A DNA stretch of 64,000 nt, from assembly GCA_030264375.1 (NCBI GenBank), contig JASCQW010000190.1, forward strand, positions 43,588,337 to 43,652,336, given 5' to 3'. Of this stretch, positions 22,500-62,198 are shown one piece after another (the first letter of the stretch is position 1; each line of letters starts with the position of its first letter). The notes beneath the pieces were generated by a model. It made no database searches. It had not been told where the DNA came from and saw nothing but the letters and a program-made list of their open reading frames with translations. The position numbers and the translations under genes are program-made. Origin of the DNA: Carcharhinus longimanus. Lineage: Eukaryota.

Positions 22500-24582
22500 G
22501 AATGAGATCACAGACCTCCAGAAATTTAAAGGACATATAAAGACAGTACTGGACCAAGCCAGAGTCCACACTGATCCCCACCAAATATGGCACGGTCTGC
22601 AAGACATAACAAGTTACAAGATGAAGGCATGTAAAATCGCCGGCTCCAATGCACTCCTCCCTGATAAGCTCAATGCATTCTACGCTCATTTTGAGCAAGA
22701 GTTTGCCCTTCACCCTGGAAGAACTTGTATCTGGGGTCACCACTGCCGAAGTCAGAGCAGCTTTCTCAAAGGTCAACCCACGGAAAGCAACTGACCCGCT
22801 TGGGGTATCTGGACGAGCACTCAGGTTCTGCGCAGATTTGCTGGCGGGGGCATTCACAGACATCTTCAACATCTCTTTACAACAATCTGAGGTCCCTATC
22901 TGCTTCAAGAAGACAACTATCATCCTGGTACCTAAGGAAAACTAAGCAGCATGCCCTAATGACTATCAGCTGGTGCCTCTGAAATCTATCATTATGAAGT
23001 GCTTCAAAAGGCTAGTCATGTTACGAATTNNNNNNNNNNCCACAGCAGAGGCCATCTCTCTGGCCCTGCACTCAACCCTGGAACATCTAGATACAAGGAC
23101 ACCTATTTATTGACTAAGCTCAGCCTTCAACATCATTATTCCCATGAAACTCATATCCAAACTCTGTGGATGGGCCTCAGCACCCTTCTGTGACTGGATC
23201 CTGAACTTCTTAACTCACAGACCACAATCAGTAAGGATAGGCAACAATACCTCTTCCACGATCATTCTCCTGTGCCTGACAAGGCCGTGTTCTCAGCTCC
23301 CTACTATACTCCTTATGCACTTATGACTGTGCGGCCAAATTCCCCTCCAATTCGATTTTCAAGTTTGCTGACGACACCACCGTAGTGAGTCGGATCTCAA
23401 ACAATGACGAGACAGAGTAGAGGAATCAGATAAACAATCTGGTGATCTGCTGCGGCCACAATAATCTCTCCTTCAATGTCAACAAAATGAAGGAAATTGT
23501 CCTTGACTTCAGCAAGCATAAAGGAGAACATGACCCTGTCTACATCAATGGAGATGAAGTAGAAAGGGTTGAGAGCTTCAGGTTTTTAGGTATCCAAATC
23601 ATCAACAACCTGTCCTGGTCCCCGCATGTCAACACTATAGTTAAGAAAATCCTCCAATGTCTCTACTTTCTCAGAAGACTAAGGAAATTTGGCATATCAG
23701 CTTTGACTCTCAGCAACTTTTACAGTTGCACCATAGAAAGCATTCTTTCTGGTTGTATCACAGCTTGGTATGGCTCCTGCTCTGCCCAAGACTGCAAGTA
23801 ACTTTGAAAAGTTGTGAACGTAGCCTAATCCATCACTCAAATCAGCCTCTTATCCATTGACTCTGTCTACACTTCCTGCTGCCTCAGCAAAGCAGCCAGC
23901 ATAATTAAGGACCCCACACATTGTGGACATTCTCTCTTCCACCATCTTTCATTGGGAAAAATATANNNNNNNNNNNNNNNNNNNNNNNNNNNNNNNNNNN
24001 NNNNNNNNNNNNNNNNNNNNNNNNNNNNNNNNNNNNNNNNNNNNNNNNNNNNNNNNNNNNNNNNNCTTCCTGCTGCCTCAGCAAAGCAGCCAGCATAATT
24101 AAGGACCCCACGCACCCCAGACATTCTCTCTTCCATCTTCTTCCTTCGGGAAAAAAGTCTGAGGTCACGTTTCAATCAAATCAAGAACAGCTTCTTCCCT
24201 CTTGCAGTCTGTGAGTTAAGAAGTTCAGGATCCAGTCACAAAGGGAGGTGCTGAGGCCCATGCCACAGAGTTTGGATATGAGTTTCGTGGGAATAATGAT
24301 GTTGAAGGCTGAGCTTAGTCAATAAATAGGAGTCTGACATAGGGTGTCCTTGTTATCTAGATGTTCCTGGGTTGAGTCAGGGCCAGGGAGATGGCATCTG
24401 CTGTGGACCAATTGTGGCTGTAGAATGGACGTATCTTGCATTAAGTTGATCTTTCTCTGCACCCTACACTACATTCTGCACTCTCGCCTTTCCTTCTCTA
24501 TGAACAGCATGTACAGTGCGCAAGAAACAATATTCCTCACTGTATGTTAATATATGTGACAATAATAAATCAAATCAAATAT
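22500..24582 (+). mobile_element. Decayed Rex1/Babar LINE (RT to 3' end)
   Basis: VNPRKATDPLGVSGRALRFCADLLAGAFTDIFNISL, KFADDTT, LYFLRRLRKFG, ESILSGCITAWYG; tail AATAAATCAAATCAAAT. Confidence 0.92.
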
Positions 24583-48925: not shown

Positions 48926-49710
48926 AAACAGACATACACAGACATACTGACAAAGACAACCTTCTTCCACCAGTGTTTCAATCTCAAACTCGAGGAGGTC
49001 AGTATCAGTATGGCTCTTCTTTCCTTTCACTAACCATCCTTGTGGTCTCATTCTCATTACACTTGTCAACTTAATATCAAATTTAAAATAGTACTGGGGC
49101 CCACATTCTTAAGGAATTGATCTGAGAACAGTGTTTGCCACGGGTATTTTACAGCCAGCAGAGGGAAGAGAAGAATTTTATGGAATCAACTGGAGGTGGA
49201 TTGGATTTCATGTCCTTGGCAGGAAAGGAGAAGGTTCTAAATCACTGCCATATCCAGTCCTAATACACAGTGTATATTTCTATTAGTAGGCTTGAAAAAG
49301 ACAAAAGAAGTGTACAACTTATTTGTCTTTTTTAATCGAGATCTACACAAAAAAAGGATTGGTCAGATGAATTGCTCATTAAAAACCAAGCATTTTGAAT
49401 CCCAGTTACTCCACCAAAAGCAATCACCATATTTTTCCAGAACATTAGCTAAAATGTAGATTAATGTTTCATCAGGAGTGAGAACAGTTAGAGATGAAAT
49501 TTCTACTCAACTTTTTCCAGTTCTGATGAAAGCTCACAGGACTGATTCTCTCTCCACAGATGTTGCCTGGTCTGCTCAGTATTTCCACATTTTATTTTAG
49601 CTTTCCAGCATCCACAATATTCTGCTTTTCGAAAATTAATATTGCCATGCAAAGTCAATGGTAATGACTGCTGAATGAACAAGTAGCACACTCTGTGCAG
49701 TTTTACTTTT

Positions 49711-50020
49711 GATGTGGGTATGCCAGCGTTGGACTGGCGTAAACACAGTAAAAAGTCTGACAACACCAGGTTTTAGTCCAACCNNNNNNNNNNNNNNNNN
49801 NNNNNNNNNNNNNNNNNNNNNNNNNNNNNNNNNNNNNNNNNNNNNNNNNNNNNNNNNNNNNNNNNNNNNNNNNNNNNNNNNNNTCTCTGTAACCTGTGAT
49901 CAGTGCTCCTTCCACTCACATTGTCAGCCACTTCAGGTCTTGAACAGCAGGTTAGGTGTAGTGAGTCTATTATCAAATAAATCAGCTGGACTAAAACCTG
50001 GTGTTGTCAGGCTTTTTACA
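49711..50020. mobile_element. Young short element with internal inverted repeats (probably Penelope-associated)
   Basis: AAAAAGTCTGACAACACCAGGTTTTAGTCCA ... TGGACTAAAACCTGGTGTTGTCAGGCTTTTT; CAGTTTTACTTTTGA on both flanks; near-identical start at 55908. Confidence 0.7.
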
Positions 50021-50959
50021 GTTTTACTTTTGACAGAGTGTGTTGACATTCAGGTACAATCCATTCAAACCAAAGGGCATCCAGCAAGTATTTAATTACT
50101 GCAGCCAAACACACGCGACAGAAGCAAGAAAAAGCACAAGATGTTGGAAAGACACAGGAGGTCTGTCAAACCTGGTGTTGTCAGACTTTTTACGGACAGG
50201 TTAACACATTTGTTTGAACACTCCCTCAGTTCTATTCAAAAATGTTACCAAATTGCTGTGCATTTAGGTTCTTGTTTTAGATTTCCAGCACTTGCATTTT
50301 CAATTTTTTTAAAATTTGGTGATGGAAGATATTTCTTTAGCTATATACAGCTGAACTATGTTTCAGCTATTTGACTCTAGACATTGCCGTTTAAGTCAGT
50401 TGGTTAGAAGAACTCAAGAGAAATGTTGCCATTTACTGCTTGCACCATCTATAACCTTCCAAGTAAAAGGGAATCACAGTATGAAAGAGTATATATGTAG
50501 CATAGACTGCCAATTAACTCAGTATAAACCATTCCACATTTTACTGATGTGTCATCAGGTCCCCTGCAAAAGAATTACTTGTTTTGCAGAAATTAGGAAT
50601 GTCCAGGACAAGAAACAACCATTGTGGTCCAACTGGACAGTTCCAGGGCTCTGCATATTAAATGCTTACCCTCTTGAATTTGCTGACACAAATTTTGACT
50701 GTTGTTCCTGGCGGCCCATTCCATTTTTGATCCTGACACACATGGGCTTTTAAAAGGAAAGGCACAACTTAACCGGCATGGTCAGCAGTAATATAACCAA
50801 ATGAGCAATTCTACTACCAGTCAGTTTTTTAAAAACTCAGCGAACTAGCTACCCAGTACTTCAACATTTAAAATAGGAGCAGACCACTGCCATGCATTCC
50901 CAGTCTCCAACGGGTAGAGTTCACTTTTCAGGCAACACAGTATAATAGGAACATGCCTT

Positions 50960-51490: not shown

Positions 51491-51978
51491 ATCATTCTCC
51501 CCACCCCCACCCAACGTCAGATCTTGAGTAAAATCGAATCGGTTGGCTTAAAGTATTTGACTTAAAAAGAAGTAAAATCCAATTACTTAAAGTCTCCCTG
51601 ACAGGAATCAAAACTGCTTCTGTTCTGTGTGTAAAACAGTCAAAAGGGATCAAAGTTCACTAGAATTCTTCAAATAGCACAATATCCCAAACTTATTTAT
51701 GTGCAACTCGCCATTTTGGGTACACAGGAGTTTACTTACTTATTGCATTTGTATAATTGGTTACAAGGGTGAAGTTCTTAAATTCAGTAGGAAATTGTTA
51801 CATAAAGTAGTTAATTTACTTGAAGATATACAATGAGAAAAGAATTACACAAGAGAACCCTCAGCTTCAATCACTGTACACTACCATGTGTTTCAGATGC
51901 CCAGCAGCTGTCCTGGCTAATGGAGCTCGGAACCAAGTCTGGTTTTTTGCATTGTGTGCATTGCACTATATCTGGGGC

Positions 51979-52476
51979 TGTTGGAATAAAATCAAAATTA
52001 AAGGATACAAAATGGTCACCTGGCACAAAATGAACTCTGGGAAAAGACATTAAGATGTGCTGACTTGGGCACAGACATTGCACAACAGAGTTAAAACCTG
52101 TTAGTGTCTAAATTACTGTAGGAAATAGACCAGACTTTAAGGCACCTTAGCTTGAGATAAAGCAGAGCCAAAACAATGAGTTTTGGTAATGAAATCAGTC
52201 ATTGATGGGAGGCATAAATGTATCTATTCTATGTACAACGATGTGCTAACTGCCGATGTCCGAACTTGTCTACTCTATGTATAACTGTGTGCTAATAGCT
52301 AACGTCCGTACTTGTCCATTATTTGAAAATGTATAAAAGATGTTCAACTGCCATTTTAAAGTTGAGAAGGTGACTGCATGCACCGCAGAGAGCCCAGCGC
52401 TTCTCCCGAAGCTTTGTCCGATAAATCTGCGTGTTGAATCTTGGATCTGACTCCGAGTGGTGATTTTCCCACAACA
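51979..52476 (+). promoter_or_regulatory. 5' LTR (498 bp)
   Basis: Starts TGTTGG after GGGC, ends CCACAACA before the PBS; TATAAAA at 52332-52338; ~47-bp tandem repeat in U3. Confidence 0.92.
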
Positions 52477-52479
52477 AAA

Positions 52480-52498
52480 CGGCGTAGTCAGGCAGGAT
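52480..52498 (+). other. Primer-binding site complementary to tRNA-Ser
   Basis: CGGCGTAGTCAGGCAGGAT vs expected TGGCGTAGTCGGCAGGAT (complement of vertebrate tRNA-Ser 3' end ...ATCCTGCCGACTACGCCA): one substitution and one inserted base. Confidence 0.85.
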
Positions 52499-52984
52499 CT
52501 CACTGTTGGTGAGTTAGTTGGTTGGCTTCGATAGGCGAACTGGAGTAGAGATGATCGAATCTATGGGAATCAGACTGAGCCAACAATGCAATTAAAAATG
52601 GGTGAAAATTAGGGAAATTTGTGGTACTGTCAGATAGAAACAGGAACCGATTGCTTGTGCTGATCGACTAAGGACAAGGAAGTGCCTGTCTCAAATGTAG
52701 CCTTAGACCGGTTGTTAAGAGGGGAAATCCCCCACACGAAGGTCAGGACCCTGAAGTGGGTATACAGGCACCAAGGCACTTAGGATCATGAAGCATAAGT
52801 GATAAAGGTCATTTAGCATCAAACTTTGTAGTGGCAAACAAACAAAGTTTGCCACCTGTTCACATAAAAGTTTGTGTAGTTTGTCTACTTGTCTGTTACG
52901 TTATAAAGCAGTGAGGTAAGGAGCTGATCACTCTGACCTAGAGCCGGACTCCAGTGGAGGAAACAAGTTGCCAAGGAGGTAATC

Positions 52985-54411
52985 ATGGCCATGGGCATAA
53001 ACAGAAATCCTAATGGTGGAAAAAACACGTTGCTAAGGGAGTAATCACGGCCAGGGGTGTAGAAGTCTGCAAGGTGGCAGGTAGAAAAACTAAGTGGGGA
53101 CCTGCGGAATCCCTTGTTGATAAATATATGACAGACAGACATGAGCTGATTAAGAAGATGCAAAGGGATGGCTGGGATGTTCTCAGACCTTAGAATAACA
53201 GAGAAAGTGGGTAAATGGGGACAAAAAAGAGACAAAACAAAAAAGGCAGGGGTCTTATTAGTACATCAATTAGCTGGACTAATTGAACAAGTAGTCGCTT
53301 CCACTAAAAAAGTGGAACAAAGATAAGGATAAGATTAAAAAATTAGAATCCAGAATAAGGGAATTGGCGAAGAGGAATCAAGTATTAGAGTAGAATCAAT
53401 GGGGAGGGGAAACTGTAGCTCTGCCCCCTTATGAGTCCACACAACAGGGACCAACCACCTCTCCAGAGGAAGGGGAAGCGCTAGAACTCAACTTGGCGCC
53501 AGTGACCCGAGGGGGAATGGACGCGCAGCCAACAGCAAATTACAAACCATCAACCCGGGCAAAAGACAACAGATAATGGCCTCCCTGGGTAAACTACAAC
53601 CTAGAAGCGCAAATACGAAGTTTTGGGATGAATTAGATACGGTTTGGGTAGGACACCAACTGCACCTAAGGGATATACACCAATTGGTTAGGGCCGTATG
53701 TCCAGCAGATAACTGGAGGCAGGTAGCCGGAGGGCCTGCCATTCCCCCAGCACAAGATTACAGTGGGGGACATTGGACACATGCAATCGCCCTAACAGCA
53801 GAAATAGATGCCCAACAGGCACCCTTCACCCTGTTTAAAACAGAAGTCCAAAGAGTTTTAGGAAATGCTCCTACTAATTGGAGTAGAATCGCAATGACCA
53901 AACAGCGAAAGGAGGAAGGAGCTTCTGAATATGGGGAACAGTATACCAGGAATACTCAGGGCAAGGAAACCCAGGCCGTGGGGATTGAGCTTTTATTCAA
54001 GCTTTCAAGGATGGGCTCTCCAGCACTCACCAAATCATCCTAAAGATGGGCGTGATCATGTGCCATGATTAGGATGAACTGGTGGAATGGACTAGTGGTG
54101 CACTTGGAGGCAGGAGGAGAAATCTCAGACGAGGACAAAACAGGAAAGGGTAGCCGCATCTGGTAGCGGGAGTGGACCTAAGCCCAAACTGACCTGCCAC
54201 AATTGTGGCCAACAAGGGCACTTTGCAAAGGAATGCTGGGTCCCAAGAAAAGGAAATAAATTTGGAAACAGTGGGAGACATTGTAATCATTGTAATAAAA
54301 ATGGACACACAGAAGCAATATGTTGGGACAAACATGGGAGACCCCCTGCCCCAATCCATGTCCATAGCAGAATTGGAGGAACTAAGGAACCTCGGAGATC
54401 AGCAAGACTGA
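52985..54411 (+). pseudogene. gag: ERV gag (disrupted); start position approximate
   Basis: Capsid-like ORF 53576-54043 with MHR-like KQRKEEGASEY; two CX2CX4HX4C knuckles CHNCGQQGHFAKEC (54195-54236) and CNHCNKNGHTEAIC (54282-54323). Confidence 0.85.
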
Positions 54412-55898
54412 TGGCCTGCAGTCCCCATTCATAAGGTAAGGAACTACGTGTCTGCATTAGTACAGGGCAGGCGATGTGTGATGCTGGTAGACACAGGAAC
54501 ATCAATGTCTGTCACTGACCTTCCCTTACACAATACAAGTAGGATGATTTATTTAACAGGGATAGGAGGGAACAAAACACCTGCCTACCTGAGTGAGACC
54601 ATGTTGGTAGGAATAAATAATTTGTATATACCTATGAGATTCTATGTATGTAAAAATAACGAGGTTACAATAATGGGAAATGATTTAATGAAGGAGTATG
54701 AAATATTGATTGGCTGGGGGAAGAGAGAATTAATCTGGTCAAAACAGAATGCTGGAAAACCAGAACAGGAAAACTCAAGTCACCTCGAGGCTATCAAGGT
54801 GGCCACAGCCACCACCAGAAATTGGCAACTAGAAACAGAGGGGTTTGGAGCCATCCATCCCTGGAACATGGGCAGAAATGAAATTCGACACTGGCCCAAC
54901 CAAAACTGACCCAATAAAGGTGCCCGGTCCGGAGCACAAATCCCACCGACACTATCCGATAAAACCGGAAGCAAAGGCAACTGTAGTATAAATAGTTAAA
55001 GGGTTCTTGGAGAAAGAAATCCTGAAGGAAACCACTAACTCCCCAACTTGGCCAGTGAGCAAACGCGACAGAAGTTACAGTCTCACGATAGACTACAGCA
55101 GCATCAGTAAAGTCACGTCCAAATTGCACCCCATTGTAGCAAGCCCCTCGACAATCCTGAATGGATTATCACCGGAGCACAAAATCTTTACTGTATTGGA
55201 TATAACCAATGGATTCTGGTCCCTACCCTTGGATCCCGAATCCCAAGACAAATTTTCCTTTACAGTGGGAGACAAACAGTACACATGGATTCACCTACTG
55301 CAGGGATTCCACAATAGCTCTGCTATCTTCCACTGAGTAATGAGTGACATCCTAAACAGGGTAAAACTGCCAGAGGGTAGCACGATTCTACAATACATGG
55401 ATGATATATTAATAGCTTCAGAATCTAAATCAGGACATCAAGGAGCACTACACCTAGTGTTGAATGAACTGAAAACCACAGGGTTAAAGGTCAGCCCCAA
55501 AAAGACACAAATTGGGAAAACACAAGTCCTATACCTAGAACACCTAATATCACAAGGGCTAAAAGAAATGCCAACAGACTGAAAGAAAGCAGTACAACAA
55601 ATGCCATGGCCAGTCACCGTGAGGAGTCAGAAAGGTGCTGGGATTGTTTAACTATAGCCAAAGTTTTATCCCAGAATTCGCAAAATTGGCAGAGCCTATA
55701 CAAAGACTAGTTAAAGAGGGAAAGCCGTAGAATGGGAACCTGAGCAAGAAGAAGCTTTTCACAAATTAAAGACAGAACTGATATCAGCCCCCGGACTGGG
55801 AGCACCAGATTCCAATAAAGATTACCACGTACACTGTAATCATGAAAGGGGGTTCTACTCCACAGTAGTAACGCAAGATCATGGTGATAAACGGAGAT
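54412..55898 (+). pseudogene. pol: ERV protease + RT + partial tether, copy 1 (disrupted)
   Basis: MLVDTG protease site, IMGNDLM, NSPTWPV, LDITNGFWSLPL, QGFHNS, QYMDDILI. Confidence 0.92.
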
Positions 55899-56072
55899 AG
55901 TAGTCATGATGTGGGTATGCCAGCATTGGACTGGCGTAAACACAGTAAAAAGTCTGACAACACCAGGTTTTANNNNNNNNNNNNNNNNNNNNNNNNNNNN
56001 NNNNNNNNNNNNNNNNNNNNNNNNNNNNNNNNNNNNNNNNNNNNNNNNNNNNNNNNNNNNNNNNNNNNNNNN
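55899..56072. mobile_element. Young short-repeat insertion plus N-gap at the duplication junction
   Basis: GATGTGGGTATGCCAGCATTGGACTGGCGTAAACACAGTAAAAAGTCTGACAACACCAGG differs at one base from the 49711 element. Confidence 0.8.
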
Positions 56073-59000
56073 ATAATTATGGTCGACAAGGGCATTTTGC
56101 AAAGGAGTGCAGGATTCCAGAGAAAGGAAATAAATTTGGAAACAGTGGGAGACGTTGTAATTATTGTAATAAAAATGGACACACGGAAGCAGTGTGTTGT
56201 GACAAACATGGGGAGACCCCTGCCCCAGTCCATGTCCACAGCAGAATTGGAGGAACTAAGGAACCTCTGAGACCAGCAAGATTGATGGTCTGCAGCCCCC
56301 ATTCATAAGGGTAAGAAGGAGGGAAGGATCTATGTGTCTGCACTAGTAGGGCAATGTGAGATGCTGGTGGACACAGGTGCATCCATATCTGTCACCGACC
56401 TTCCTTTACCCACTACAAGTAGGATGCTTTATCTAACAGGGATAGGAGGGAACAAAACACCTGCCTATCTGAGCAAGACCACGTTAGTATAATTAAACAA
56501 TTCGTACATACTTATGAGATTCTATGTATGTAAAGATAACAAAAGTACAATAATGGGAAATGATTTAATGAAGAAGTATGAAATTTTGATTGATTGTGGG
56601 AAGGGAGAGCTAATCTGGCCAACACAGGATGGCCGGAAAACCGGAACAGGAAAACTCATGAGCCATGTCGAGACTATCAAGGTGGCCACAGTCACCACCA
56701 GAGATTGGTGACTAGAAACAAAGGGCTTTGGAGCCATTTGTGCCTCTGTCCCTTCAGTTTGGGCCAAAATGAAATTAGATACTGGCCTAACCAAAACTGA
56801 CCCGATAAAGTGGCCCGGACTGGAGCATAAACCCCATCGACGGTACCCGATAAAACCGGAAGCAAAGGCAGCTGGAGTGGAAATAAAGGGTTAGTGGAGA
56901 ACAGAATCCTGAGGGAAACTACAGTACCATTAACTCCCCTACCTGGTCAGTGAGCAAACTCGATGGAAGTAACAGACTCACAATAGACTACACCACCCTC
57001 AATAAAGTCGCGTCCAAATTGCACCCCACTGTAGCGAGCCTCTCGACAATCCTGAATGGATTGTCACCGGAGCATAAAATTTTTACCGTATTAGATATAG
57101 CCAATGGATTCTGGTCCCTACCCTTGGATCCGAATCCCAAGACAAATTTGCATTTACAGTGGGAGACAAATAGTACACTTGGACTCACCTACCGCAGGGA
57201 TTCCACAATAGCCCCGCTATCTTCCATCGAGTAATGAGTGACATTCTGAACAGGGTAGAACTACCAGAGGGTAGCACAATTCTACAATACATGGATGATA
57301 TATTAATAGCTTCAGAATCTAAGTCAGGCTATCAGGGAGCACTATACCTAGTGTTGAATGAACTGAAAACCGCAGGGTTAAAGGTGAGCCTTAAAAAGGC
57401 ACAAATCAGGGAAACACAAGTCCTGTTTCCACGACGCTTAATATCACGAGGGCTTAAAGAAATGCCAACAGACTGAAAGAAGGCGGTACAACAAATGCCG
57501 CGGCCAGTCACCATACGAGGAGTCAGGAAGGTGCTGGGATACTTAACTATAGATGAAGTTCTATCCCAGAATTCGCAAAATTGGCAGAGCCTATAGAGAG
57601 ACTAGCTAAAGGGGGAAAACCAGCTTTAAACTCCATAGAATGGGAACCTGAGCAAGAAGAAGCCTATAATAAAGGCAGAACTTATATCAGCCCCCGGACT
57701 GGGACTACCAGATTCCAATAAAGATTTCCACATACACTGTAATAATGAAGTGAGGTTCTACTCTGCAGTAGTAATGCATGGCGATAAACAGAGACCCATA
57801 GGTTACTATTCAACAGCAGAAGGGTCGGTAGTAACCGACTGCCAAGATGCATAATCGCCTTAGATTGCGCCACCTGGGCCATAAAGGTTAGCGAACCAAT
57901 AGTAATGACACGAAGTATAATCCTCCACACCAAACACACCTTGGTGGAAATGCTAAATACAGGAAAGTTAAGGTCCGTCTTGAACGTGAGAAGGGCCAAG
58001 TGGGAAGTCGTCCCCCTACCTCCCAGCAAATCAGTTAGAATAGTAAGGGACACAGGAGATAACCCAATAGAAGGAATTCTGGATACAGGAGAACCACATA
58101 ACTGGGAGACGTAGATATGGATGTAGGAGGAGGTACGGTAAAGGATGTACTTTTAGCAACAGCTGAGGAGATCCTTTTCATAGATGGCTCACATAAATAC
58201 ATGGAAGGATCGCCCCGGACAGGATGGGCAATAGCAAATGAAAAATTGGAAACAGTAAAGTCAGAAAGAATTGACAGAGATCTATCCGCGCAGGTGGTGG
58301 AACTACTGGCATTCACAAAGGCACGAGAATTGTCTGAAGGAAAGACGATAAACATATATACTGATAGTGGGTATGCATTCAGGGTAATACACGATTATAC
58401 AATGGCATGGGGTAGAAGGGGGTTTGTAATCACGGGAGGAACTCCTATTAAACACCAACAAAGAATCGAGGCATTACTAAAAGCCAGCAAAAAACCCCGA
58501 GAAGCGGCAGTAATAAAAATTAAAGCGCATCAGAAGGAATCAGAAAGGGGTAACCCAGATTGGTTAAATTACAAACAGAACCAAGCCACAGGTAGAGCAG
58601 CGCAATTAGCATTAGAGCAGGAGGCAGTTAGCCAGTTGCCAATAGCAGTAACGAGCCAGACAGAAGGCGAAATAGATATTCAGGACTTACATGAGGATAC
58701 CACGAAAGAGGAAAAGGGGAAGTGGGAAGCACAGGGCGTGAGCAGAGGGACGGATAACATTTGGAGACAAAATGACAAGGTAATGGCACTGGACTGCATA
58801 CAAAACATCCTCTTGGGACTACACCATGGACTCTCACATGCGGGAAGAGAGGTCATGGCAACTAATCTAGGAAAAGAATGGGTGGAAAGGAATGGCAAGG
58901 GACATAGCTCAACACTGTCACCGATGCATGACATGCTCCCAATACAAGCTCAGTCAACCCATAAAAATTAAGATGGGGCATCAGCCCCGACCAAAGGGGC

Positions 59001-59790
59001 CCTGGGAACATCTGCAAATAGATTTCACAGGGCCACTGCCAACAGTCCCACAGCAAAACCTATTGTCTGATTATTATTGACCAGTTCACCAGGTGGGTAG
59101 AAGTGTTCCCTACTAAAAATTGTACTGCTACCACAGTGGCTAGAATATTGGCAGAGGAGGTAATCCCTAGATGGGGAGTACCCATACAAATTGATTCGGA
59201 TCAAGGGGCGACGCATTTCACCAGAAAGGCGGTAAAACAGTGTGCCAACTGATGGGAATAAAACAAAAATTCCACATCCCCTATCACCTGCAGAGTTCTG
59301 GAATGGTGGAACGCATGAACAGAACCCTTAAGATGCACTGGCCAAGGCCATGCAAATGGCAGGAAAAACGTGGACAGAAGTATTACCCACTATATTAATA
59401 AGGTTACGAGCCATCACAAACCGGACAACTGGATCAACCCCTTATGAACTAATGACAGGAAGGGCGATGCAATCACCAGAAAGCATCATAACAGGTGGGG
59501 CCGATGTAGTTCCATTAAAAGATACAATTAAAAGATATGCATCCAACTAAAAGGGATGCATAAATTAGTAAAGGATAATCAGGAAAAAAGAGACGGAGAG
59601 AGAGAGCTTGAAATGCTCCCCGACATCCCAAGTTGCATCATGGTAAAATCATTACCTGAAAAACCAGGGTTTGTACCAAATGGAATGGGCCATATGACGT
59701 CATAATTAGTGGAGATTCTTGTGCCTGTCTGGATATAAGAGGGAAAGGTGTACGGCAACATTGTACCCGGAAATGATTAGTGATATTAAA
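56073..59790 (+). pseudogene. pol: ERV gag C-terminus + protease + RT (copy 2) + RNase H + integrase (disrupted)
   Basis: LVDTGAS, LDIANGFWSLPL, LPQGFHNSP, YMDD; RNase H FIDGS/SAQVVEL/IYTDSGYAF; integrase HHGLSH..CMTC, LQIDFTGPLP, IDSDQG, SSGMVERMNRTLK. Confidence 0.93.
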
Positions 59791-59844
59791 GTGACCAGAG
59801 TGCTTACCCTGAAACAGGTGACGACTACAAGTAAGATTAACTGA

Positions 59845-61339
59845 CATGTTCGGGTTGGCAATACAGCCTTTGGGAAATTGTTAACATAGAGTAATAAGAC
59901 TGATATTTGCGTGTTGCTAACATGTCTAAGATTACATTCATATATATATATTGCATTACTCTATGTTGTCGTGATTGTAAGATTAACAGGGCTATAGGAT
60001 AACTTATTCTACAAGGCTCATGTACATTTATACAGTAATCGAGGTGTTACCCGTTAGCCCAATCTGTAGAGGCCCTATTTGTGGCCACCCCTGGGTGGAC
60101 TGCCCACAACTTACATACGGCAGATACCTTGGACACACCGTGTAAAGGACAAACAGACAAATATAAAAGGGTCATACAGGGAAGACGTGTAAAACTGATA
60201 AACACCACTGCTCCTGTTGTAGGGGGCTCCAGGGAGTGGGAAGAAGAGTATGCTCGGATGATGCAAGCTACCTGCTTTGCTTTTCGGGGCAGGGATGGGG
60301 ATGTGCATATGCCTTGGTCACCAAGAATGTTTCCTGTGTACAAACGCAGTGTGTCTGTCAGCACTGTCGGGTAAACAGAGGCCAGTTCACTTGTACCTGT
60401 AACAGCAAAGACGCCTGAAAGTAGCCGCGGGGAGACAACTTATTTGTGGTCAGTGTAATGGGACTCATGTCAGTTCAGCCGAATGGGCATACCCGTTTGA
60501 CGCTTACCAATTATAGGATCAGGCAGAAAGACAAGCGAACCCACTAATTTGCGGTATATACAGACCAGTAACCAGGATATTAAATGCTACTGGGCCAAGA
60601 AGGGATTTGTGTTCCTCCTTAACAGCACCTTCACAACGGCAACACCAACCCTCCCAAACCTTTTTGCAGTAGGTACAATAGGACCACTCACCATTCCATG
60701 CCCTCAAAAGGGGCATATCTGGGGAAAGATAGTGGCCTGGGCCATCAGGAAGGAATTCTGTGCCAATTGGGAAGTTCCGATCACACTGGGATTGTCATTC
60801 GGCTACAGGTTCCAATAGAAACCATATTATCTGTGGATTAACCATCCTGGGAAACAGTACATCAAAGGCACTGGAGGCCATCAACCAAGAATTGGCTGAA
60901 TTAAGATTATACGCACAGCAGACCCGCTATACCATAGACTATCAGCAAGCCCAACAGGGGCAAGTATGCACAATAATAGCAGACAGATGTATAACACATG
61001 TTACAAATGAATCCTACAATATTAGCCAAGTCATTAATAACATAAGAAAGCAGCTCGATGACTTTAGTCAAGGTCCCAAGAAGGGGAATAGTAGCTCCAA
61101 TGGTTATTGGGGGGATCCGGGGGTACTATTAAATGCACAGACTGATTATTCTCGCTGCAGTAATAATTGTCTGGTGCCGAATTATCGGGTGTCTCAATGT
61201 ATGTTGTAAAGTCATGATGATTCGGATTGTGCCAGGGGCCAGAGTGGTCACCAAAGAAGAACATCTGATGGGAGCTCCCGAAGACACCAAGGATGACGAC
61301 GATGAAGGAAAGGACGAGAAGGTGGGCGTCTACCTGTGA
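59845..61339 (+). pseudogene. env: ERV env (disrupted); start position approximate
   Basis: TM heptad/ISD-like NSTSKALEAINQELAELRLYAQQTRYTIDYQQAQQGQVCTIIADRC, membrane anchor LIILAAVIIVWC, acidic cytoplasmic tail; Cys- and N-glycosylation-site-rich SU fragments upstream. Confidence 0.88.
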
Positions 61340-61431
61340 ACACGTGACCTTTGGTTAGGGTCAGGCATATCAATTGCCGGATCCACGATGCTGCTAATGT
61401 TGATCCATCGGATTAGATCATAATCTTGACT

Positions 61432-61442
61432 AAAAGGGGGAG
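61432..61442 (+). other. Polypurine tract
   Basis: AAAAGGGGGAG one base upstream of the 3' LTR. Confidence 0.9.
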
Positions 61443-61443
61443 T

Positions 61444-61776
61444 TGTTGGAGTAGCTTCAGATAAAGCAGAGCCAAAACAATGAGTTTCAGTAACGAAATC
61501 ATCGATGGGGGGCATAAATGTATCTACTCTATGTATAACAATGTGCTAACTGAGGATTTCCGTACTTGTCTACTCTATGTATAACGATGTGCTACCAGCT
61601 AATGTCCGTACTTGTCCATTATTTGAAAATGTATAAAAGATACTCAGCTGGCATTGTAAAGTTGAGAAGGTGACTGCGCGCACTGCAGAGAGCCCAGCGC
61701 TTATGCTAAAGCTTTGTCCAATAAAACTGCATGTTGAATCTTAGATCTAACTCCAAATGGTGATTTTCCCACAACA
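61444..61776 (+). promoter_or_regulatory. 3' LTR (333 bp; lacks ~160 bp of U3)
   Basis: TGTTGGA...CCACAACA; TATAAAA 61632-61638; AATAAA 61720-61725; colinear with 52149-52476. Confidence 0.93.
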
Positions 61777-62198
61777 GGGCCTAACAGTGAAAAATGGACC
61801 AAGGCTAAAGACAATTAATTGATATATCTTTATGTAGAAACTATCAGCGATCATTCCAAATATTATGCATCTACACTTGATCTTCCAACTTCATATTTGA
61901 GTAAAACTATTAAGCTGGAAGTTGAATATATGTACTATAACATGTACACTTTGTATAACATTTAGGCATTAAAGCAGTTAAAATATGTTGGTTGGGTACA
62001 TGGAACATTGGTTAGTCTGGAAGGGAGGACTCAAAGAAAGTTTGGAGATTTCTGGTATAAACATGCACAAGTCCAAATGCTGCAGAAAAAGTGTTTGAAG
62101 ATACCTCCAATTTTATTCAAGTTCCACTACACTCATTTTTATCAACTTCAAATTATTGATGTGCTAGGTAATTAGACAGAAAAATGAAAAATACTCAC

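Follow-up and report, generated by a model that had tools for sequence, protein, structure and literature searches.

The window analysed here, a stretch of 64,000 nt of Carcharhinus longimanus DNA (GCA_030264375.1, contig JASCQW010000190.1), contains an old endogenous retrovirus (ERV), assigned by the likeness of its reverse transcriptase (RT) and by its layout to class I (gamma/epsilon-like), in which part of gag-pol appears twice, on either side of an assembly gap. On sequence evidence, the two copies, A and B, descend from different viral lineages and are not sisters. Their side-by-side position within one insertion site is probably due to the assembler, which may have fused in a piece of a paralogous provirus (probability roughly 0.53). 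The doubling is therefore presented as unproven, and as somewhat more likely a product of assembly than of biology; a real provirus of two lineages is a serious alternative that falls a little short of an even chance. The weights given to the competing mechanisms are the authors' own judgement.

Self-comparison of the window reveals that positions 54201-55897 are repeated at 56075-57794 (1744 columns, 16 gap openings), a stretch that spans two zinc knuckles, the protease and RT as defined by Pfam. The preliminary description had reported this repeat as 1.7 kb at about 90% identity. The doubling is indeed present in the assembly, but identity is 83.8% with gap columns and 87.1% without them (12.9% of 1673 sites differ, or 11.0% outside CpG-prone columns), and 90% is reached in a 500-bp RT block only. 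The length was also underestimated: because copy A continues on an unplaced contig, C34409, beyond a repeat insertion, the total overlap is at least 2.6 kb. Neither of its ends is visible, as copy B begins at the gap edge and copy A halts at the repeat insertion at 55898-55972. The features of the doubled region are as follows; b-type and o-type denote the two viral sublineages considered below.

54201..55897, forward strand: copy A, with knuckles, protease and RT, carrying stops and frameshifts
55886..55897, forward strand: 12-bp target site of the repeat insertion, which recurs on C34409
55898..55972, no strand: terminal part of a 195-bp hairpin repeat, a young insertion that is likely Penelope-like
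55973..56072, no strand: 100-N gap, unsized, which hides at least about 1 kb
56075..57794, forward strand: copy B, with knuckles, protease and RT, b-type to 57093 and o-type from 57218
57783..58682, forward strand: continued overlap (RT connection, RNase H), of which C34409 carries a second version

The junction between A and B falls inside the 100-N gap, and no sequence crosses it. C34409, from the same genome, overlaps the left gap edge by 26 exact bases, completes the 195-bp insert and then repeats the last 12 bases of copy A, at one of which copy B differs. It continues for 875 bp that match 57783-58682 at 12.8% distance, with a ratio of non-synonymous to synonymous substitution rates (dN/dS) of 0.95. 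C34409, the true next contig after copy A, is absent from the scaffold. On the other side, no contig abutting the start of copy B was found by exact 20-mers or by end overlaps of at least 11 bases among the pieces at hand, which included nine extra family hits.

The 22 public runs listed include no long reads. Four public runs from three studies were compared over the region; all consist of short contigs, and the closest run may be the source of the window. All four contain both copies and both junctions between a long terminal repeat (LTR) and the flank, and their contigs bridge only parts of the region, spanning neither the gap nor either whole contig. A and B are unlikely to be alleles, being present in every run at contig depths of the order of the flanks, although contig depth is a weak measure. 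The repeat insert after 55897 is present in run X18 and absent from the copy A orthologue in X1 and X3, where the orthologue passes 55897 into more pol. The insert is therefore recent and not the cause of the doubling. A giant target duplication made by the repeat itself is rejected, as its own target-site duplication (TSD) is 12 bp and X1 and X3 hold both copies without it.

The host sequences on the two sides come from a single insertion site. An uninterrupted paralogous host stretch on contig C72 aligns with the left flank to 51974 and resumes in the right flank from 61783; the anchored flank score is 18, against a maximum of 15 in 20,000 random host 60-mers. Both contigs hold host flank without any N, and, as first described, one matching TSD (51975-51978 and 61777-61780) brackets the whole element. 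Upstream, the young repeat found at 55898 has a second insertion at the gap beginning at 49784, and its target duplication of 15 bp anchors the left contig in the preceding scaffold. A search for another LTR with the same right flank gave six other pattern matches, none of which was shown to be a partner.

The origin of A and B was assessed against a family set from which the window loci (L001, L003) were removed, with L029_b also left out of the trees and L029_b and L024_b out of the dN/dS set; in the first family search the best 40 of 182 RT candidates and the best 40 of 497 LTR candidates were scored. A and B have no indel in common and share two rare states (rank 187 among 464 pairs in 32 aligned rows), with about 60 private states each. 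Copy B lies inside an eight-row clade with support of 100/99, and copy A lies outside it, with or without CpG-prone columns. Constraining A and B to form a clade is 20 log units worse; the approximately unbiased (AU) test gives p 0.074, so formal rejection is not reached. The LTR tree is star-like and uninformative (AU p 0.20). When diagnostic sites are defined on other copies, 11 of the 12 lying at or before 57093 are b-type in copy B, and 18 of the 22 lying at or beyond 57218 are o-type. Copy A is o-type at 14 of 19 sites, without any switch in the leader and gag upstream of it, and C34409 is o-type at 10 of 12. From RNase H onward into integrase and env, informative sites are few. Among 23 rows tested, 15 of which defined the sites, no b/o mosaic other than copy B was seen. 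The proposal that two distinct viral genomes were the source agrees with these results, short of the formal rejection noted above. A stop common to both copies (55580 and 57474) had been set against it, unless it was a recurrent change; it is recurrent, occurring in 13 of 30 rows and in both main clades, and is discarded as a sign of common history. Elsewhere in the family, L163 (C142:37.21M) combines sequence of both main clades in one proviral copy, and is likely a natural recombinant.

Over the whole overlap dN/dS is 0.60 (545 codons, p 0.001), falling to 0.54 without CpG-prone codons and to 0.49 with a lower transition weight. A value near 1 with the copies as sisters had been named in advance as the mark of a simple tandem duplication; the copies are not sisters, and the ratio comes near 1 in the RNase H part alone (0.95). 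The signal is stronger in the YMDD block (dN/dS 0.31), where the earlier hand count of 10 synonymous and 8 non-synonymous differences proved exact. The suggestion that the copies look selected does not hold, because the private differences are neutral, with 31% of them synonymous where 28% would be expected; post-insertion selection on the copies is rejected on this ground. Of the differences for which both states occur in at least four other copies, 66% are synonymous. The synonymous excess thus lies in states common to other proviruses, which points to divergence between viral sublineages before insertion and indicates purifying selection on the replicating viruses. Across 368 other pairs dN/dS has a median of 0.58, and the 49 within-subclade pairs range from 0.64 to 1.07, all above the value for A and B. 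A ratio below 1 needs no host-level selection.

The argument for an assembly artefact comes mainly from the rest of the family, for which the fetched loci are the closest matches and not a random sample. Family-internal sequence adjoins both edges of 29 gaps. At 11 of these, spread over nine loci including the present one, the flanking sequences overlap at 82.8-87.8% identity, and 10 of the 11 are 100-N gaps; one further gap has an exact 77-bp overlap instead. Eight neighbour pairs at six other overlap loci have 0-3 rare states in common, compared with 11 in a true sister pair. Sequence free of gaps contains 26 distinct deletions, read as forward jumps along the element, and not one jump backward. 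If the duplications were real, some of their junctions should lie inside contigs; the lack of any, whether as a backward jump, as a middle LTR among 37 or as a nested LTR end among 114, is the main ground for preferring an artefact.

The eight further overlap loci are C32:8.33M, C32:37.57M, C32:41.58M, C32:60.06M, C72:95.68M, C72:104.58M, C139:36.75M and C148:20.01M; C32:8.33M and C32:37.57M each have three overlapping pieces, and matching outer TSDs are found at two, C148 and C72:95.68M. In a provirus at C61:27.146M (L102/L103, C61:27.14M) a 100-N gap stands in place of leader, gag and RT, so such gaps can hide more than 3 kb; the missing 5' part was sought as proof of misplacement and gave no match. 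Overlap at gaps may also extend beyond this ERV family, as a LINE-like stretch in the window (23872-23961 and 24066-24155) is 88% identical across the 100-N gap at 23966-24065. The proviral copy L097 (C137:1.428M) has a 250-bp internal inversion beside a deletion.

An assembly error of the following kind could account for the arrangement. Working inward from each host flank, the assembler would have passed through a family with a few hundred members about 87% alike, and one extension may have crossed to a paralogous provirus where the two have an exact stretch in common. The two contigs would then have overshot and been joined by 100 N, with leftovers such as C34409 remaining unplaced. The low dN/dS would reflect the pre-insertion purifying selection to be seen in any two family copies. 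Exact stretches of at least 48 nt common to other family copies number six and eight in the two contigs, and are possible crossing points. False duplications at assembly gaps present as overlaps on both sides of an unsized gap, and the usual haplotype-derived duplicates are nearly identical. A and B, in contrast, are paralogues about 13% apart, both found in all four runs; the near-identity expected of the haplotype type is lacking, and a path error is needed instead. A 100-bp gap stands for unknown size in RagTag and HiRise output (PMC9753292, PMC7757076).

Several observations weigh against an assembly error. Both contigs reach the host flank of one site, so that one of them must be internally fused, and the search for a fusion point in either gave candidates only. 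The left contig has no b/o switch. Run X19 has a contig that covers 58510-58828 with 10 differences, so that no fusion lies where C34409 ends. The exact stretch within the b-to-o switch of copy B is shared with outgroup-clade copies, which are not b-type, and the best 40 candidates of each DNA search included no further copy identical to A or B. A U3 deletion is common to both LTRs and present in 7 of 48 LTRs. At six of the eight other loci, one member of the overlap lies between gaps and consists almost wholly of family sequence, which is an easier error to make; the two overlapping pieces at C32:60.06M, and likewise those at C139:36.75M, each include 1.4-3.9 kb of other sequence, and these two loci may be like the present case.

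Of the biological mechanisms, the best placed, though unlikely, is a composite formed at the DNA level, in which a second provirus or viral cDNA recombined with or nested in the first (LTR-A-LTR-B-LTR, or a nested form), with an inner LTR and about 6 kb hidden in the gap. This predicts one TSD around two non-sister internal regions, and is consistent with the extension of A past the repeat, with the start of B only at a contig edge and with the several kb that 100-N gaps may represent, as at C61:27.146M. Tandem proviruses with three LTRs are known, such as HML-2 at 7p22.1 (PMC11807958). However, none of 37 full LTRs lies between an upstream env and a downstream leader, as a middle LTR would, and a nested LTR end in foreign internal sequence is lacking among 48 5' and 66 3' ends (114 in all), the two flagged ends being 3' LTRs behind deletions; a strict exact-pattern search also gave none. 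The best candidate contig for the middle LTR, C27289, is rejected, as it carries host DNA upstream.

A single round of reverse transcription in a particle with two RNAs is likewise doubtful, and is ranked just below the composite. While copying gag of one RNA, RT would have switched out of register and returned to pol of the other, so that at least 2.6 kb was doubled. This would explain one site with one TSD and two sublineages, and a K2P (Kimura two-parameter) distance between A and B (0.144) that is near to, and slightly above, that of the LTR pair (0.125; 11.4% difference between 5' and 3' LTRs over 333 sites). Copy B is itself recombinant, b-type at 11 of 12 sites before 57150 and at 4 of 22 after it, for a breakpoint chosen post hoc. 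Copackaging and duplication by template switching are established; against the mechanism, non-homologous recombination is put at 1000-fold or more rarer than homologous (PMC3187697). In addition, pure o and b RNAs should leave a b-type second RNase H, if RNase H degradation is reasoned through, yet C34409 is o-type at this position; the mechanism needs an already recombinant partner, seen nowhere else. The 26 deletions without a single backward junction also count against it.

A broader claim, that such arrangements are both real and common, with two or three viral genomes and kb overlaps in single sites at nine of the fetched loci, by copackaging switch or cDNA recombination, is improbable; if true, these loci would be fossil records of germline co-infection. 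A join of two separate loci by the gap was named in the preliminary description as what would overturn the interpretation. Taken as two intact contigs from different proviral loci, with the TSD matching by chance, it would suit an unsized gap, non-sister copies and a TSD of only 4 bp, but a plain join of this kind is rejected by the continuity of both flanks in the C72 paralogue and by the 15-bp tie of the left contig upstream, and is given very little weight. Least probable of all is that the provirus, once in place, much later underwent tandem or segmental duplication. The shared stop, the AU p of 0.074 and the place of A among the closer relatives of B might speak for this, but it is rejected since the copies are not sisters and lack shared derived changes (no shared indel, two rare states against about 60 private ones each), the stop is widespread, dN/dS is below that of all 49 within-subclade pairs and divergence between A and B is not below that of the LTRs.

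Lineages II and III of CmiERV from the elephant shark, class I elements of cartilaginous fishes, have the LTR-gag-pol-env-LTR layout that the present element, with its putative env, appears to share; an RT nearest to the MLV type and a common frame for gag and pol, with a stop between the two, are further points of likeness. LTR divergence is 0.033 and 0.024 in that report, compared with 0.125 here, and no internal duplication is described in the part of it available (PMC4422223). HERV-K(HML-2) loci at 7p22.1 and 6q14.1 each contain three LTRs and two internal regions, resolved only by long reads (PMC11807958). Unlike these tandems, the present locus has no visible middle LTR, and its internal regions come from different sublineages. 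The internal regions of the HML-2 tandems are reportedly near-identical. Template-switch duplications in murine leukaemia virus (MLV), spleen necrosis virus (SNV) and HIV-1 (PMC3187697) would leave a single TSD around an internal stretch doubled from two copackaged RNAs; the RNase H lineage here misfits two pure parents, and such events are rare. A literature search, which took in few subscription papers, found none on this ERV family or on internal duplication of an ERV from two lineages.

If the doubling is an artefact, proviral overlaps 13% divergent across 100-N gaps in this assembly mimic 'selected duplications', and a matching TSD offers no protection. If it is real, one site would hold two sublineages that circulated together, and would preserve copackaging or cDNA recombination in a shark germline as a direct fossil.

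In other respects this is an ordinary class I ERV family. The element has the layout LTR-gag-pol-env-LTR, with env as a putative part, paired TG...CA LTRs and a short TSD, those of the family being 4 or 5 bp. Four Pfam domains score above cut-off, in the order zf-CCHC, RVP, RVT_1 and RNase_H. Among solved structures, Pol is closest to MLV-type RT, over foamy, lentiviral and Ty3 RT; a relative, protein P0001, matches MLV-type at 1e-108, against 4e-51 for the next group. P0001 is a nameless Pol protein of 914 aa, 72% identical to the RNase H frame of the window, which shows that less decayed family relatives are present in public assemblies. One piece of a Mustelus asterias protein is 83% identical to the element. 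Across the family alignment gag and pol share one frame, with an intervening stop in 21 of 23 rows. A match to the env HR1-HR2 region at 60733-61206 scores 23.3 bits, below the Pfam cut-off of 27. The remaining features are as follows.

51975..51978, forward strand: left TSD copy, 4 bp (of 15 possibly solo LTRs in the family, three have a perfect 4-bp and four a perfect 5-bp TSD)
51979..52476, forward strand: 5' LTR, 498 bp, the family length
52477..54200, forward strand: leader and gag upstream of the overlap, o-type like copy A, without a switch
52479..52498, forward strand: primer-binding-site-like sequence, presumably resembling the end of tRNA-Ser; the same motif lies behind other 5' LTRs
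58102..59770, forward strand: RNase H (Pfam) and predicted integrase region, the latter from the likeness to P0001 (72% identical)
59800..61443, forward strand: putative decayed env region and polypurine tract
61444..61776, forward strand: 3' LTR, 333 bp, shortened by a private deletion that follows base 8 and covers about 170 bp
61777..61780, forward strand: right TSD copy, 4 bp
49695..50035, no strand: second insertion of the young repeat, split by the 100-N gap at 49784-49883, with a 15-bp target duplication

The deletion of about 170 bp in the 3' LTR (window 61444-61460) is found in one of 48 LTRs and is spanned by a contig of run X18.

The insert at 55898 is likely Penelope-like, from a weak match to the GIY-YIG endonuclease in a longer relative: in one of five frames tried from related copies it scores 21.2 bits (E 3.5e-4), below the cut-off of 22.6. 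The insert has inverted ends, a hairpin form and target duplications of variable length (12 bp, 15 bp). The insert, assembled from 55898-55972 and L082:876-1021, forms a near-perfect 195-bp hairpin of two inverted repeat ends round a short loop, for which Rfam returned only generic miRNA-like or hairpin-type matches, all under the gathering score and none of them a hammerhead ribozyme. Penelope-like repeats of at least two subfamilies lie at, or within about 45 bp of, one pol position in seven proviral copies: the window (55897), L024 (C32:37.58M), L026 (C61:12.91M), L074 (C61:27.146M), L064 (C148:20.016M), L080 (C1221) and L002 (C8750). This position is a target-site hot spot.

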